19,658 bases of DNA from a virus, in UHGV virus genome UHGV-0171543, one strand, 5' to 3'. This document shows positions 1,034-9,228 of the stretch, piece by piece. Both the position numbers and the translations under genes were made by a program. Numbering within the stretch: position 1 is the first letter of the stretch; each line of letters opens with the position of its first letter. Under the pieces are notes generated by a model. That model did not search any database. It was not told the origin of the DNA and saw nothing but the letters and a program-made list of their open reading frames with translations.

Positions 1034-1109
1034 TGGTGCTGGTTAACGGACTTGAACCGCTACCCATTCGCTTACAAGGCGACTGCTCTACCATTGGAGC
1101 TAAACCAGC
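1034..1109 (-). tRNA. tRNA, predicted Thr (anticodon UGU)
   Basis: Hand-folded 76-nt cloverleaf on the minus strand: perfect 7-bp acceptor stem (GCTGGTT/AACCAGC), D-arm GCTC-CAATGGTA-GAGC, anticodon loop CTTGTAA, T-arm AGCGG-TTCAAGT-CCGTT, encoded CCA. One G-A mismatch at the top of the anticodon stem. Confidence 0.6.
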
Positions 1110-1114
1110 ATATT

Positions 1115-1189
1115 TGGAGGGGCAGCGTGGACTCGAACCACGATAAGAAGGTTAACGGCCTTCCGTAATGACCTTTATACGACTGACCC
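1115..1189 (-). tRNA. tRNA-like element, possibly degenerate (Asn GUU-like anticodon loop with C at position 33)
   Basis: 75-nt minus-strand sequence with a canonical T-arm (CGTGG-TTCGAGT-CCACG), encoded CCA and a 5-bp anticodon stem with loop CCGTTAA. The acceptor stem has one mismatch (GGGTCAG vs CTGCCCC) and the D-arm is short and atypical. Lies 5 nt from the preceding tRNA. Confidence 0.35.
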
Positions 1190-3891: not shown

Positions 3892-4208
3892 TCCTTCACT
3901 TTGATTCCAGCAGCGCGGATGTTTTCCTCATAAGCATCCATTGCATCACCGAAGCCATTGGAATAATCAACAGTAAACCCTTTGGCTAATGCTTCTCTGC
4001 TGTCGATAAACTTTGGCGCGGTTATTTCAATAGCTGCTCGCGATGCCTGCCACGTTTGCCAGTGGCCTTGAACATCGTCCATCACGTATTGACCACCAAT
4101 ATTACCGCTGCCAATTTCATGGTGATTTTCAGGGTAACGGATAAGGTCTGAGTATTCGCCTCCACGTCGCAACCAACTTTCTTCAAACTGCTTTCTTGAT
4201 TCGTCCAT
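3888..4208 (-). CDS. Hypothetical protein
   Basis: 106-aa acidic ORF with no motif I recognise. Embedded in the operon between the helicase and ninB. Confidence 0.5.
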   Translation of the reverse strand: MDESRKQFEESWLRRGGEYSDLIRYPENHHEIGSGNIGGQYVMDDVQGHWQTWQASRAAIEITAPKFIDSREALAKGFTVDYSNGFGDAMDAYEENIRAAGIKVKE

Positions 4209-4225
4209 CGATACTTACCCTCAGT

Positions 4226-4432
4226 TCAACTCACAAAACGCCACGCCATTTTTGCTATAGCGACAGGCGCAACACCGATAATCACCCACATGAGAATGCT
4301 ACCGAAAAGCACACCCACCAGGTCTTTACCTTCGCCTACCAACCGGACAAAACAGCCAGCAACCACAATGAAAGTCGCCACCATCCACATAGCACCGAGA
4401 AGCCTCAATGCAGAGAAAATCAACTCAACCAC
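4226..4432 (-). CDS. Small hypothetical membrane protein (two predicted TM helices; GTG start)
   Basis: 68-aa ORF, almost entirely hydrophobic (MWMVATFIVVAGCFV, VLFGSILMWVIIGVAPVAIA). The start codon is GTG on the minus strand. Confidence 0.4.
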   Translation of the reverse strand: MVELIFSALRLLGAMWMVATFIVVAGCFVRLVGEGKDLVGVLFGSILMWVIIGVAPVAIAKMAWRFVS

Positions 4433-4507
4433 GATTTACTCTCCCCCAAATAAAAAGGCCTGCGATTACCAGCAGGCCTGTTACAAGCTCAGTGATGTAG
4501 ATGGTCA

Positions 4508-5944
4508 TCAGAATCCTCCTTTCTTCTTGGACTGCGGTTCCTCGCGTTCACGTCGGCGCATTTCAGCAGACTGTTGGTCTGTGTCATAAATAGCGCCATT
4601 TGCCTGAATGCAATACACCGTGCCGGTATTGCCATGACGATTGAGACGAAGGATTAGTTCGGTTTCACCAGGTGGAACACTGTCATCAAAAGCGCCTTCA
4701 CGATGGATCCCAACCCAATAATCGCAATCCTGTTCAATCTGCCCTGTATCTCGTGAGTCACTTGGTAATGGGCGTTTATTGGTTCGGCTTTCCAGTGCGC
4801 GGTTAAGCTGTGTCAGAAGCACAACAACGCAATCAAGCTCTTTGGCAAGGTTCTTCAGTCCTTTGGTGATCATGCCGTAAGCAAGGTCGTTGCGATCGGC
4901 CTTCTCAGCGGTCATTAGTGTCAGGTAATCGACCAGAATCATGCCAACACATCCTTTTTCTCGCTTTATTCGACGGCTTTCGCTGACGATTTGAGCCAGA
5001 GATAATCCCGGCGTGTCGTCGATGTAAAGCATGTCGATTTCACTCAAGCGATTAGCTGTTTCGATTGCCCTGTTGAAGTCACCATCGTAATCACCCTGAT
5101 AGCCGTCATCAGCGTCATTTGTCGCCGGAAGGTAAAAAATATTCGGGTTAACACCTGACTTCTGTCCCACCAGTTTTTCCAGTATCTGGTCACCTGGCAT
5201 TTCAAGGCTGAACATCAGAGCGGGCTTTTTCTCATGCACTGCGCAGTTGATTGCCATCTGGCTGTATATCGTCGTTTTCCCCATCTTAGGGCGAGCGCCA
5301 ATGACAAACAGAGAGCCTTTCACCAGACCTTTCGGTGACAGCATCCTGTCCAGCGATGGGATCCCTGTGCTCATTCCTCGTTGTTCTCCTGACGGGTCAA
5401 ATCGCTTCTCAAGGTCGCTAACCCAGTCTTCCATGACCTCACCAAATGAGCGAAGGCCGCGACGCGATCCGGTTTTTGCATGGTCTGTCAGTTGCGTGAA
5501 AATCGCCTGAATAGCTTCGTACTTCTGCGTTGCAGTCATTCCGTTGCGGGAATAGAGCAATTCCGTCGCTTCAGTCATGCGGTTGATGGCGTAGCGTTCC
5601 ATTGCGGTTTCACGAACCTGCATTGCATAGGCAACGATGTTTGCTGCGCTTGGCGTGTTCTTTGCGATCTCAGCGATATAAGCAAAACCGCCAACAGACG
5701 CCGTTAACGATTTACGCTCCAGTTCATCGAAAAGCGTCAGGCCATCTACTGGCTTTTGCTCCCGGTGCATTCTGGTTATTTCTTCGAAAAGGATTTTGTG
5801 TGGTCGGCCGTAAAATGAATCAGGCTTCAGCATCGCCAGAACTTTCTGGACGCGCTCACTGCTGTCATCATCCAGAAGCAATCCACCAATCACCGCCTGC
5901 TCTGCCTCGATGCTATGGGGCGGCGCATAAAAATTATCGGTCAT
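4508..5944 (-). CDS. DnaB-family replicative helicase (lambdoid P-position helicase)
   Basis: About 478 aa from the ATG at 5944, which has an AGGGTG Shine-Dalgarno-like element upstream (the ORF track extends to a GTG at 5959). Walker A GARPKMGKT, DnaB-like N-terminal domain, Walker B-like ILVDYLTLM. Overlaps the O stop. Confidence 0.9.
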   Translation of the reverse strand: MTDNFYAPPHSIEAEQAVIGGLLLDDDSSERVQKVLAMLKPDSFYGRPHKILFEEITRMHREQKPVDGLTLFDELERKSLTASVGGFAYIAEIAKNTPSAANIVAYAMQVRETAMERYAINRMTEATELLYSRNGMTATQKYEAIQAIFTQLTDHAKTGSRRGLRSFGEVMEDWVSDLEKRFDPSGEQRGMSTGIPSLDRMLSPKGLVKGSLFVIGARPKMGKTTIYSQMAINCAVHEKKPALMFSLEMPGDQILEKLVGQKSGVNPNIFYLPATNDADDGYQGDYDGDFNRAIETANRLSEIDMLYIDDTPGLSLAQIVSESRRIKREKGCVGMILVDYLTLMTAEKADRNDLAYGMITKGLKNLAKELDCVVVLLTQLNRALESRTNKRPLPSDSRDTGQIEQDCDYWVGIHREGAFDDSVPPGETELILRLNRHGNTGTVYCIQANGAIYDTDQQSAEMRRREREEPQSKKKGGF

Positions 5945-6833
5945 CGTGTTCACCCTCACGAACTTTCAGGTAGGTATTGTCGTTAAGCAGGAAATCAAAT
6001 CCCTTTTTGTGCCAGACGGTTCCGCGTTGATGGTTTGGGCGTTCTTCGAACATCCATCGGCAATTTTCGCCTACGTAGCTCAAATAATTTCTCCAGTCCT
6101 GCATCGAGAACCCATGCCCGTCAAGCTGGCGGGTTATCACTCCGGCTTTGCGCCAGAACGTTCGGATCTGGTTTTTACGCTTGTCATTCAGTGCGCGGAT
6201 TCTTGGCGCTTCAGGAAGGATTTCGTGGTAAGCATCGACAACATCCTGACAGCTAACGGAAGGTTTTTTCTTGTCAGACTTTTTGTCTGCTGTGGCACTC
6301 TCTAATACGTCAGTATTAGAGATAATATTATTATATTCTTTATCTGTGGTAATTTGCTGGTAATCTGCTGGTACAGTATTGCTTACAGGCATTGGTATTG
6401 CTGGCTTTGAGGTGGTAATTTGCTGGTAATCTGCTGGTACAAAATTTGACTGATAATCGTCATATTTCTCTACCGAGAAAACTGAGAATTTACCGTGTGA
6501 AACCCAGTCAATCATGCCGAGTTTTTTGAACTTTCTAAGCAGGTACTGAACGCGATCTGGTTTGAGTCCTGTTTCAAACGCCAGAGAGTTTCTACCGCCA
6601 AGTAGCTTACCTCTGCCTACCAGAATTTCTCCTGCGTCAGTCATTACATACTCAGGCGTATGCTTTGCTTTGAGGATTAAGTGAACCCACAGATGTGCTG
6701 CTTCTGCGTCCTTGTAAAACGGCACATCCATAATTTTACGGTGCAGCAAGGCATACCCCTTACCGCTGCTTTGATGCGGTTGTTGTAGCCTTCTGGCCTC
6801 TCTGGCTTCGGCTAGATTAGATATGTTACTCAT
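5934..6833 (-). CDS. Replication initiator O-like protein (non-lambda allele) containing the origin iterons
   Basis: 299-aa ORF directly downstream of cII in the O position. The repeated peptide [10 protein letters not shown] is encoded by the DNA iterons. The N-terminal domain does not match lambda O as I recall it. Confidence 0.8.
6300..6441. repeat. Putative replication origin inside the O gene: iterons plus adjacent AT-rich segment
   Basis: GGTAATTTGCTGGTAATCTGCTGGTACA occurs twice (6348..6375 and 6414..6441), each made of two approx. 10-bp GCTGGTA units. A perfect 8-bp inverted repeat (TCTAATAC-GTCA-GTATTAGA, 6301..6320) and an AT-rich run (6321..6345) lie just beyond, downstream in the O reading direction. 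Confidence 0.65.
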
Positions 6834-6972
6834 GACCTTTCTCCTTCTGCATCAGCTTCACCTTTTCCAACTCAGCCCGGAATCGACCAGGCTGCTTGAA
6901 GCTGGACAGGAAGCGATCACGTAGTATGTGTTTGTGAATTTTGTCCTGGTAAGGACTGAGTTGTTTTGTCAT
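6826..6972 (-). CDS. Small hypothetical ORF between cII and O (48 aa, basic)
   Basis: Below the ORF-track length cutoff. Minus-strand ATG at 6972 preceded by AGGAG about 7 nt upstream. Its stop overlaps the O start (ATGAGTAA). Hand translation [48 protein letters not shown]. Confidence 0.35.
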
Positions 6973-7004
6973 AATGACTCCTGTGGATTGATCCAGTAAT
7001 TCCC

Positions 7005-7304
7005 TCAGAATTCCATCTGGATTTGTTCAGAACGCTCGGTCTTGCACACCGGGCGTTTTTTATTGGTGAGTCCATCAAGCGCATACTTAAAAGCCCTGCT
7101 AATCGGACTGATGTCTGATGCCATTCCAAAAGCACACAGAACCGAAGCAATAAATCTCCAGTCCGTTCTGCTTATCTTCGATTCATGACAGCCAATCATC
7201 TTTGCCAGACCGCGCTGGGTAAGCGTGGACAGGTTGATGAGTAAATCTGTTTCTGCGCGATCAACGTCGCGCTGTGATAGTTTGCTGTAACTTGTTTGTT
7301 CCAT
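7005..7304 (-). CDS. cII: cII-like transcriptional activator (mosaic: lambda-type C-terminus, different N-terminal domain)
   Basis: 99-aa ORF at the cII position. The C-terminal [17 protein letters not shown] matches the lambda cII C-terminus as recalled. The N-terminal 75 aa carries a different HTH-like segment ([18 protein letters not shown]). Confidence 0.7.
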
Positions 7305-7368
7305 TTCTTACTATTTCCATAGGTAAATAATCACTAATACTCATCTTTCGATGAGTGCTTAATTAGTT

Positions 7369-7402
7369 ACCGCGTTGTCGGCGGTGCAGATTGATAAAGA
7401 GC
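7369..7402 (-). promoter_or_regulatory. nutR-like site: boxA plus P22-type boxB hairpin
   Basis: In the rightward transcript, CGCTCTTTATCA (boxA-like) is followed by ACCGCCGACAACGCGGT (hairpin with GACAA loop). A second hairpin ACTCATC-GAAA-GATGAGT lies at 7338..7355. Confidence 0.6.
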
Positions 7403-7410
7403 GGTGTTAC

Positions 7411-7620
<210 letters not shown>

Positions 7621-7708: not shown

Positions 7709-8425
<717 letters not shown>

Positions 8426-8432
8426 CACGTAA

Positions 8433-8870
8433 ATGATTAAAGAACGTATTTCTTATATCATTCCGATTGCGATGGATGAAGGCAACCCCGTAACTCCAGT
8501 TCTTATCTATGAAATGGATAAAGACTCCCATGAAGTGGATCTGTCATTTGGCGCTTTTTTTATCGGCCTTAAGGCTACAAAAAAATATTCCATAGGCATT
8601 GAGGTTTTCAATGCTCAAGAAATACCGATACCAATTGACACAAAACTGTACTCCAACCATAAGTTTTTTACGGTAGCAGAAGCCAACGATGGAGAAACCA
8701 TCGTATCAACTTCTATGAGAATTAACTTCCCAAGGGTGAAAATTATCAAGCCTGGGATATTCGAAGTTAGAGCATCACTGGTTAATCCTGAGAAAGGCGA
8801 AGTAATTGATGTAAAAAGTTCGTTTTTTGACGTGAAGATAACAGGATCAGTTCGCGATGAGTTTAGATAA
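8433..8870 (+). CDS. Hypothetical protein A of a two-gene cassette at the rexA position (unknown function)
   Basis: 145-aa ORF starting 7 nt after the cI stop, same strand. No TM segment and no motif I recognise. Confidence 0.7.
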   Translation: MIKERISYIIPIAMDEGNPVTPVLIYEMDKDSHEVDLSFGAFFIGLKATKKYSIGIEVFNAQEIPIPIDTKLYSNHKFFTVAEANDGETIVSTSMRINFPRVKIIKPGIFEVRASLVNPEKGEVIDVKSSFFDVKITGSVRDEFR

Positions 8871-9228
8871 CAAGGTTGCTCAGCTTCGTCCAAATCAAAA
8901 CATATCTCGCCCAATTGGACACTATTACACTGATGATGCATACTCACGGCATGGTGGAGGAAACGGCGGAGGTAACATGCTTGAGGCTAGAGTTGCAAAG
9001 CTAGAGTCTGATGTTGAATACATCAAGCGCGATCTCGCTGAGGTAAAGTCAGATATAAAATCTGTTGATTCTCGTCTGTCAGGTATTGAGACAAGCATTA
9101 GCTCAGCAAAAACCACCATTAAGGCATCTGCGGTCGTTGTCAGTTTCGTGTTCGCATTTTGCGCCTACATTTTTGGAAGTTATGTTTCCAAAATCCTTGA
9201 TGCCTTAAACGGACTCATTCTTAAGTAA
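8857..9228 (+). CDS. Hypothetical membrane protein B of the cassette: Gly-rich linker, amphipathic coiled coil, single C-terminal TM helix
   Basis: 123-aa ORF overlapping gene A by 14 nt. An alternative start at ATG 8977 is preceded by GGAGGT and would give 84 aa. Heptad-like segment LEARVAKLESDVEYIKRDLAEVKSDIKSV, then hydrophobic AVVVSFVFAFCAYIFGSYV near the C-terminus. Confidence 0.7.
   Translation: MSLDNKVAQLRPNQNISRPIGHYYTDDAYSRHGGGNGGGNMLEARVAKLESDVEYIKRDLAEVKSDIKSVDSRLSGIETSISSAKTTIKASAVVVSFVFAFCAYIFGSYVSKILDALNGLILK

Follow-up and report, generated by a model that had tools for sequence, protein, structure and literature searches.

The stretch of DNA analyzed here, virus genome UHGV-0171543 over its full 19,658 nucleotides (the window, in what follows), contains the early genes of a mosaic lambdoid (pro)phage, whose early-right operon, by the ORF listing, runs on the minus strand. 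The same listing gives the gene order cII, orf48, initiator, helicase, which puts orf48 on the strand of the early-right (pR) operon. A previous sequence-only reading of the window had pointed to a possible extra small gene between cII and O. The features of the region, with the basis of each, are as follows.

4508..5959, minus strand: DnaB-like replicative helicase of the HK022 "P" type (Pfam DnaB, 1e-30; DnaB_C, 6e-60)
5934..6833, minus strand: replication initiator of the HK022 "O" type, 299 aa (PHROG 345, "replication initiation O-like," E=6e-87; HK022 and VT2-Sakai annotation)
6826..6972, minus strand: orf48 (DUF2740), 48 codons plus a TAA stop (ORF listing; Pfam PF10872, E=8.9e-29)
6826..6833, minus strand: 8-nt overlap ATGAGTAA of the initiator start and the orf48 stop (sequence reading; identical in 176 of 178 loci)
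6841..6846, minus strand: Shine-Dalgarno (SD) sequence AAGGAG of the initiator, in orf48 codons 43 to 44 (sequence reading; 7 nt before the initiator ATG)
6943..6956, no strand assigned: near-palindrome or small hairpin GTCCTTACCAGGAC, 14 nt, with CCAGG, in orf48 codons 6 to 10 (terminator-like scan)
6947..6975, plus strand: predicted oop promoter pO (corresponds in position to the oop promoter of the P22 record and agrees with PMC3349717)
6978..6982, minus strand: SD sequence AGGAG of orf48 (sequence reading; 5 nt before the ATG)
6983..7064, plus strand: predicted oop antisense RNA, convergent to cII (near-identity to the lambda oop region; alignment with lambda and P22; P22 annotation; PMC3349717)
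7005-7304, minus strand: cII (Pfam Phage_CII, E=6e-35)
7029-7059, plus strand: hairpin-plus-T-run terminator of oop, at which the predicted oop ends (terminator scan)
7411-7611, minus strand: cro, lambda-like, 98% identical (ORF listing)
7712-8425, plus strand: cI (ORF listing)

The 48-codon minus-strand ORF with an AGGAG, as described in the sequence-only reading, lies at 6826-6972, with its ATG at 6970-6972, its TAA stop at 6826-6828, and the AGGAG at 6978-6982. The initiator ATG is at 6831-6833, and orf48 ends 5 nt inside this next gene, which in other loci, too, is normally the replication initiator. The gap between cII and the initiator, given earlier as about 170 bp, measures 171 bp, from the cII stop ending at 7005 to the initiator start at 6833. 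The distance given there for lambda, a few tens of bp between cII and O, was also right: that spacer is 32 bp (38654-38685), the same as the cII-orf48 spacer of the window. The gene that had been called O, on the other hand, has no BLASTP similarity to lambda O; it is an initiator of the HK022 type, and the gene after it encodes a DnaB-like helicase rather than lambda P. By sequence reading, the initiator gene contains an iteron-like repeat, ggtaatttgctggtaatctgctggtaca, at ~6348-6375 and 6414-6441. The body of cII is HK022-like, and its last 12 aa are identical to those of lambda cII in a comparison of the two proteins.

An alignment showed the window to be nearly identical to lambda from the 3' end of cII via oop to CAGGAGTCATTATGAC, with divergence right after the start codon. 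Since the match extends up to the start codon, orf48 uses lambda's O initiation region. The AGGAG belongs to this conserved initiation region, as seen in an alignment of lambda, P22, and the Erwinia phage. Across the cII-oop-O junction, lambda and the window thus share the 32-bp gap, the ribosome-binding site, and an ATGAC start; in lambda that start opens O directly, whereas in the window it opens orf48, and the initiator begins 139 nt further on. The predicted 5' end of oop was placed by reference to the start of lambda oop. Read on the opposite strand, the orf48 start codon falls within the -10 element of pO, CATAAT (6970-6975), and the candidate -35 element, TGGTAA (6947-6952), lies within codons 7 to 9, so that pO overlaps codons 1 to 9. 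A strict sigma-70 scan of 6700-7450 found no promoter, and pO is a weak consensus match assigned by homology alone. Rfam at gathering thresholds returned only two tRNAs in the window, with no match in the cII-O region and no oop family.

orf48 is a known protein-coding gene

We have very little doubt that the 48-codon ORF is the known lambdoid-phage gene represented by orf48 of P22, orf48 of HK022, hkaW of HK620, and Pfam family DUF2740. The peptide scored 99.4 bits against PF10872 (DUF2740), for which the cut-off is 27, over model positions 1 to 43 of 43, and matched PHROG 1913 with an E value of 2.7e-28. In tblastn searches, orf48 was present in 127 of 50,697 phage records. The protein is 100% identical in HK022 orf48, HK620 hkaW, VT2-Sakai H0097, mEp043, mEp235, and many Stx phages; identity to the window orf48 is 85% in P22 and its relatives and 58% in the Erwinia phage. 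The 147-nt sequence also occurs in 400 of 5426 complete RefSeq Escherichia coli genomes (~7%), where its PGAP name is "DUF2740 family protein." The genes of P22, HK022, HK620, and VT2-Sakai agree with that of the window in length (147 nt), in lying between cII/oop and the initiator, and in the ATGAGTAA overlap. Nothing of substance sets the window apart from those phages; it is a mosaic in which lambda-like cI and cro are combined with an HK022-type initiator and helicase. In the curated P22 record, orf48 stands between c1 and gene 18, and its start is overlapped by the oop promoter.

The extra small gene proposed by the sequence-only reading is therefore genuine, and lambda lacks it (sequence comparison; PMC3349717), but it is not an unrecognized gene, being annotated in P22, HK022, Pfam, and PGAP. 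It is a rediscovery of a gene that is already known. Annotation of orf48 in P22 and HK022 goes back to the 1980s-90s. As a discovery, a gene that has long been annotated, has its own Pfam family, and is common in E. coli carries little weight. Its interest is that a conserved early gene of model phages and Shiga-toxin prophages has no function in the searchable literature or in family libraries. Literature searches found no paper on DUF2740 or PF10872, only unrelated matches for hkaW, and nothing beyond annotation on the function of orf48. Three uses of the name refer to other genes: the "orf48" of the lambda interaction map (PMC3224144) and the "ORF48" of a Citrobacter prophage paper are unrelated genes that share the name only, and "orf48:gnarl1" (PMC12373910) is a coincidence of names from lytic phages. 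The database label "tail protein," widespread for the DUF2740 family, is almost certainly wrong.

Comparisons across loci draw on 178 homolog loci plus the window, taken from GenBank phages, GTDB genomes, and IMG/VR; a scan of GTDB species representatives had given 7 loci only, too few for statistics, and the IMG/VR loci were used for this reason. Conservation in related phages had been named as one check on the ORF, and frame, length, and overlap are kept in ~180 loci. The product is 48 aa in 174 of the 178 loci and 47 aa in the other 4. The stop overlapping the next start, also noted in the sequence-only reading, is almost universal: the terminal 8 nt of orf48 read ATGAGTAA in 176 loci and ATGGGTAA or ATGGATAA in the remaining two, and the two most distant homologs have a 4- or 8-nt overlap. 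Codons 43 to 44 vary (KE, KR, or RG), and GGAG or GAGG is always kept 7 to 9 nt before the initiator ATG. The 3' part of orf48 is thus dual-coded as the initiator SD.

Selection on the protein was assessed over codons 10 to 39, chosen because they lie outside the parts that overlap pO or the initiator start signals. Pairwise Nei-Gojobori counts, uncorrected for phylogeny, over 58 distinct 147-nt sequences gave a pS of 0.307, a pN of 0.068, and a ratio of 0.22, the lowest of the six frames; the other five frames over orf48 had pN/pS values of 0.43 to 2.2. Fourteen residues are invariant—H13, K14, I16, R18, D19, R20, L22, F25, Q27, P28, R30, R32, V38, and K39—and synonymous codon changes occur at I16, L22, F25, R30, R32, V38, and K39 among these, several with two to five codons. 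The motif HKxI[LI]RDR[FY]L...QPGRFRAE persists down to the Erwinia phage homolog (58% identity), and part of it to the distant members P0057 and P0062. We conclude that orf48 is a real protein-coding gene under purifying selection. A chance frame in an intergenic spacer, with no protein expression, has next to no probability as an explanation: the frame is short, at 48 codons, and the literature searched held no direct translation evidence, but the match to a Pfam family, the low pN/pS in this frame, the strong SD at optimal spacing, and above all the conservation of frame and length in ~180 loci from several enterobacterial genera effectively refute it.

A profile search of 1.84 billion representative proteins showed DUF2740 to be a small family of enterobacterial phages and prophages only, made up of stand-alone proteins of ~46 to 48 aa, with no fusions to an initiator or helicase. 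Four candidates were rejected, P0060 as a c1-orf48 frameshift artefact and the other three (P0058, P0063, and P0067) as tandem-repeat noise. As the sequence-only reading had it, the product is a small basic protein, with a mass of 5.8 kDa, a pI of 10.1, and 12 K+R against 6 D+E. AlphaFold2, run with a 30-sequence alignment, predicted two helices (residues 7 to 23 and 28 to 44) joined at the conserved QPG, with a mean pLDDT of 79.8. Foldseek searches with this model gave 0 matches in the PDB and a nonsignificant best E value of 1.7 in BFVD. A sequence profile search of the PDB gave a meaningless best E value of 0.21 (PhnI or CD63), and NCBIfam gave 0 matches. Likeness to helicase-loader families (DnaC, lambda P, DciA, and DnaD-like) was seen in none of the Pfam, NCBIfam, PHROG, PDB, and Foldseek searches. 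PADLOC, whose models cover defence proteins only, gave no match at E values up to 1.

Position at the start of the replication block

Synteny of cII, orf48, initiator, and helicase extends to HK022, P22, VT2-Sakai, the Erwinia phage, and loci L181 and L183. The order DUF2740, initiator, DnaB helicase is kept in the Erwinia phage (~58% identity) and in the most distant family members, P0057 and P0062, with an 8- or 4-nt overlap. In most loci the cII-orf48 gap is 32 to 36 nt, and there orf48 adjoins cII and oop. An extra gene lies between cII and orf48 in 27 loci and in L183. Of the two most distant family members, one carries such an insertion ahead of DUF2740. The extra gene of the 27 loci codes for one of two products: a 265-aa protein containing a ParB HTH domain, or a 178-aa protein that has a weak, beta-clamp-like match. 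There, orf48 begins 9 nt after the inserted gene or overlaps it by 4 nt, and the 8-nt initiator overlap is kept. The pO -10 is lost before orf48 in loci with genes inserted after cII. Between orf48 and the initiator, an extra gene was found only in L088, where a T5orf172 gene follows orf48, having taken over the ATGAGTAA junction and the "MSN" start. Because orf48 stays with the initiator despite insertions, its constant neighbour is the start of the replication block rather than cII or oop; orf48 travels as the first cistron of that block (orf48, initiator, helicase), not with cII or oop.

Beyond this attachment, the partners of orf48 are diverse. Each of its subtypes X0, X1, and X2 occurs with both of two unrelated initiator N-terminal types (lambda-O/P22-18-like and HK022-like), and the gene as a whole is found with at least five initiator C-terminal types. 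Its helicase partners comprise two DnaB-like families, a 626-aa Toprim/DnaB_C primase-helicase, and, once, lambda P (L092). We saw no co-segregation of the orf48 subtypes with initiator or helicase types, which argues against a specific contact of Orf48 with initiator or helicase. At least three dissimilar types of cII lie upstream of orf48.

HK97 has a different small ORF at the position of orf48 (Hayes et al., PMC3349717). This ORF, HK97 gp53/Sf6 gene 42, has 54 codons including the stop, for a protein of 53 aa, and occupies the same slot. Like orf48, it uses the same initiation region, shares the first ~11 codons (MTKxxxxYQ[DE]K), is small and basic (gp53 pI 10.7), overlaps the initiator start, and precedes the same DnaB-type helicase modules. 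It differs in the length of the overlap, 14 nt against 8, and in the initiator that follows, which begins MGVV... rather than MSN..., and no similarity between the two proteins was detected beyond residue 11.

Occupancy of the slot was compared between helicase types in two sets of IMG/VR loci, the 80 nearest to lambda P and the 80 nearest to the window helicase, keeping those with enough upstream DNA. A small ORF was present in 77 of 77 DnaB-type loci, 33 with orf48 and 44 with the HK97 gp53 type. Neither type was found in any of the 74 lambda-P-type loci; in 62 of them the conserved initiation region leads straight into O, with the CAGGAGTCATTATGAC motif immediately preceding it. Among lambda-type O/P modules, the exception to the absence of orf48 is the recombinant locus L092. 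The contrast of 77/77 to 0/74 is suggestive, although these loci are close relatives and not independent evidence; common descent of neighbouring DNA, and not function, may lie behind it. Among the DnaB-type loci, the type of small ORF tracks the first residues of the adjacent initiator (MSNISNLA versus MGVVKLAD), as simple linkage would give.

It is conceivable, though a long shot, that Orf48 serves as a minimal cofactor required by those lambdoid replication modules which encode a DnaB-family helicase of their own, and that the gp53 peptide, by analogy, does the same. To give examples, such a peptide might assist the initiator, as a two-helix adaptor, in loading the phage helicase, or it might displace a host factor; lambda-type modules would dispense with Orf48 because lambda P does that job. 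This would explain a slot that is filled in 77 of 77 DnaB-type loci and empty in 74 of 74 lambda-P-type loci. Together, the attachment to the initiator and the all-or-none contrast between helicase types make a concrete and cheaply testable hypothesis.

Probable initiator coupling and possible roles of Orf48

The orf48-initiator junction resembles the ATGA-type overlap of lambda O and P, with the upstream stop in or next to the downstream start and the SD inside the upstream coding sequence. It differs from coupled cistrons such as lambda O-P in that here we infer coupling from the sequence and the downstream SD is strong by itself. The fold predicted for 201 nt of the window mRNA has an energy of -57.1 kcal/mol (z = -2.9); in it, orf48 codons 16 to 22 form a long-range helix with the initiator AUG and SD. 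In this helix, CUUCCU (codons 21 to 22) pairs with the initiator SD, and CGUGAU (codons 18 to 19) pairs with the GUCAUG that holds the initiator AUG. RNAalifold kept the 6-bp CGUGAU/GUCAUG helix in all 92 distinct sequences; its columns are all invariant, with a covariation term of -0.75 kcal/mol and no covariation. From this model, it is possible that mRNA structure occludes the initiator start. Coupling as had been proposed in the sequence-only reading is fairly probable, yet unproven, because the helix shows no covariation and the initiator has a good SD of its own, strong enough to act alone.

We lean slightly toward a reading in which orf48 opens the replication block as a cistron translationally coupled to the next one, its product being an accessory peptide that can be dispensed with. 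orf48 would be translated from the site used by lambda for O, translation would run into the initiator start, and ribosomes on orf48 would deliver or enhance initiation there. The basic, two-helix Orf48 would serve replication modules equipped with their own helicase as a dispensable accessory factor, and it would act on something conserved—a host factor or protein, or nucleic acid—and not on a variable phage partner. A conserved target is probable because Orf48 shows no co-variation with its phage partners. Considering that lambda-type modules work without orf48 and that gp53 can fill the slot, any role is nonessential or replaceable. A role in replication initiation, which the sequence-only reading had offered as one possibility, is plausible from position only, and we regard an accessory replication role for Orf48 as tentative.

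The same features of the junction would also fit a gene that acts mainly in cis, which we consider rather unlikely. orf48 would then be a leader or spacer cistron that sets initiator synthesis by termination-reinitiation or by unfolding an inhibitory helix, and that would also keep the initiator start away from two elements that directly adjoin the O start in lambda, the oop promoter and the OOP-mRNA duplex; the peptide would have little or no function of its own. This is consistent with the use of lambda O's initiation region adjoining the inferred oop 5' end (PMC3349717), with the near-universal overlap (176 of 178 loci), with the initiator SD embedded in orf48, with the predicted helix sequestering the initiator AUG and SD, and with the nonhomologous HK97 gp53, similar in size, in the same slot with its 14-nt overlap. 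However, a spacer whose peptide does little would not be expected to show protein-level purifying selection in central codons free of known overlapping signals (pN/pS of 0.22), a length fixed at 47 to 48 aa, and a motif conserved to 58% identity, and the helix that it would unfold lacks covariation.

Small basic phage peptides often target host proteins, and Orf48 might be a moron-like accessory of host takeover or anti-defence, carried in a recombination-prone slot with conserved boundary sequences. The gene is optional: lambda lacks it, and 97 phage records have the unrelated gp53 in its place. Its DNA is highly conserved while both flanks are mosaic, and the Sf6 record annotates a "boundary sequence" (bsq5) at the slot. 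Yet orf48 sits within an operon with no promoter or terminator of its own, its strict 8-nt initiator overlap and its position are kept across genera, and it has no PADLOC or other family match of this kind, all of which make this explanation quite unlikely.

Less probable again is a modulator of the lysis-lysogeny decision acting on cII, such as a cIII-like protector from FtsH or a partner of the OOP antisense RNA, and the modulation of cII that the sequence-only reading had suggested is disfavoured. In most loci orf48 does adjoin cII and oop at a gap of 32 to 36 nt, and Orf48 resembles lambda cIII in its similar size, its (predicted) helical structure, its place among the early genes, and an 11-residue resemblance to cIII RLIDILNQPGV. 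However, cIII belongs to the other operon arm and Orf48 is linked to the initiator rather than to cII; comparison with the FtsH inhibitor cIII showed no significant relationship, with an hhalign probability of only 0.9% over 11 aligned residues. The occurrence of orf48 with dissimilar cII types, its keeping to the initiator when genes are inserted after cII, and the loss of the pO -10 in those insertion loci also argue against a role tied to cII or OOP.

The sharing of only the first ~11 codons by orf48 and HK97 gp53 fits a DNA-level constraint on that stretch at the start of the gene. Codons 6 to 10 of orf48 carry the near-palindrome at 6943..6956, which reads GTCCT(T/G)ACCAGGAC; its hairpin is kept by RNAalifold in 92 sequences and is conserved where the pO -10 is absent.

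Small genes in the slot upstream of the replication initiator

Occupancy of the slot upstream of the initiator was compared between loci whose replication module is closest to lambda P (L184 to L263) and loci closest to the DnaB-like helicase of the window (L264 to L343). All 77 DnaB-type modules carried a small ORF there, either orf48, the DUF2740-family gene (33 loci), or an ORF of the HK97 gp53 type (44 loci). The slot was empty in the lambda-P-type modules (74 of 74). Both orf48 and HK97 gp53-type peptides are small and basic but are unrelated past the first 11 residues.

Additional genes were found around orf48. In L088, the order is orf48, a T5orf172-domain gene, and then the replication protein; the T5orf172-domain gene begins with "MSN" at the ATGAGTAA junction, both of which are normally features of the initiator and have here been taken over. 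Some Enterobacterales phages have an additional gene between cII and orf48.

Genes inserted next to orf48
L088, about 3905-4700: T5orf172-domain gene directly 3′ of orf48 (Pfam E = 4e-15)
L102, 3455-3991: between cII and orf48; 178-aa protein, weak DNA polymerase III beta-like match
L122, 3207-4004: between cII and orf48; 265-aa protein, ParB HTH domain
L183, 3255-4004: between cII and orf48; unannotated 249-aa ORF, no family match on record

The "tail protein" label of the orf48 family

PHROG 1913, to which the orf48/DUF2740 family corresponds, carries the label "tail protein," and this label is now found in RefSeq and GenBank phage records. Members concerned are orf48 of the window (6826-6972), P22 orf48 (NC_002371), and those of Stx2-converting phage 86, mEp043, and Erwinia phage Midgardsormr38 (L004, 2501-2647). 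Because orf48 sits in the early-right operon, with cII on one side and the replication initiator on the other, the label is almost certainly a mis-annotation passed between records.

A near-palindrome within orf48 and a hybrid cII

A short conserved element lies within the orf48 coding sequence.

Window 6943-6956: 14-nt near-palindrome GTCCT(T/G)ACCAGGAC, inside orf48 codons 6-10

Synonymous variation is very low across this element, which includes CCAGG, a Dcm site, and coincides with the predicted −35 of pO, the putative promoter of the oop antisense RNA. The near-palindrome persists even in loci without a pO −10. It may bind a protein, fold as an RNA hairpin, or simply be a promoter element.

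The adjacent cII (window 7005-7304) is a hybrid, with 42% overall identity to lambda cII and a final 12 residues identical to it. The oop RNA overlaps this identical end segment, which is shared as a mosaic boundary sequence. In the Sf6 record, "bsq5" is annotated beneath the match to the small ORF adjoining the cII segment.

Genes following cI and a tandem tRNA pair

The window cro is 98% identical to lambda cro, and cI probably resembles its lambda counterpart as well. Two ORFs co-directional with each other directly follow cI.

Window 8433-8870, + strand: 145 aa; PHROG 5893, unknown function
Window 8857-9228, + strand: 123 aa; PHROG 6136, unknown function

The first had no match in Pfam, and the second had weak XhlA/hemolysin-like and CorA-like matches. 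They stand where the lambda map has rexA and rexB, and they may be accessory or exclusion genes expressed from the prophage. The end of the window that holds the late genes also carries a phage-borne tandem pair of tRNA genes.

Window 1034-1109, − strand: tRNA-Thr (tgt)
Window 1115-1189, − strand: tRNA-Asn (gtt)
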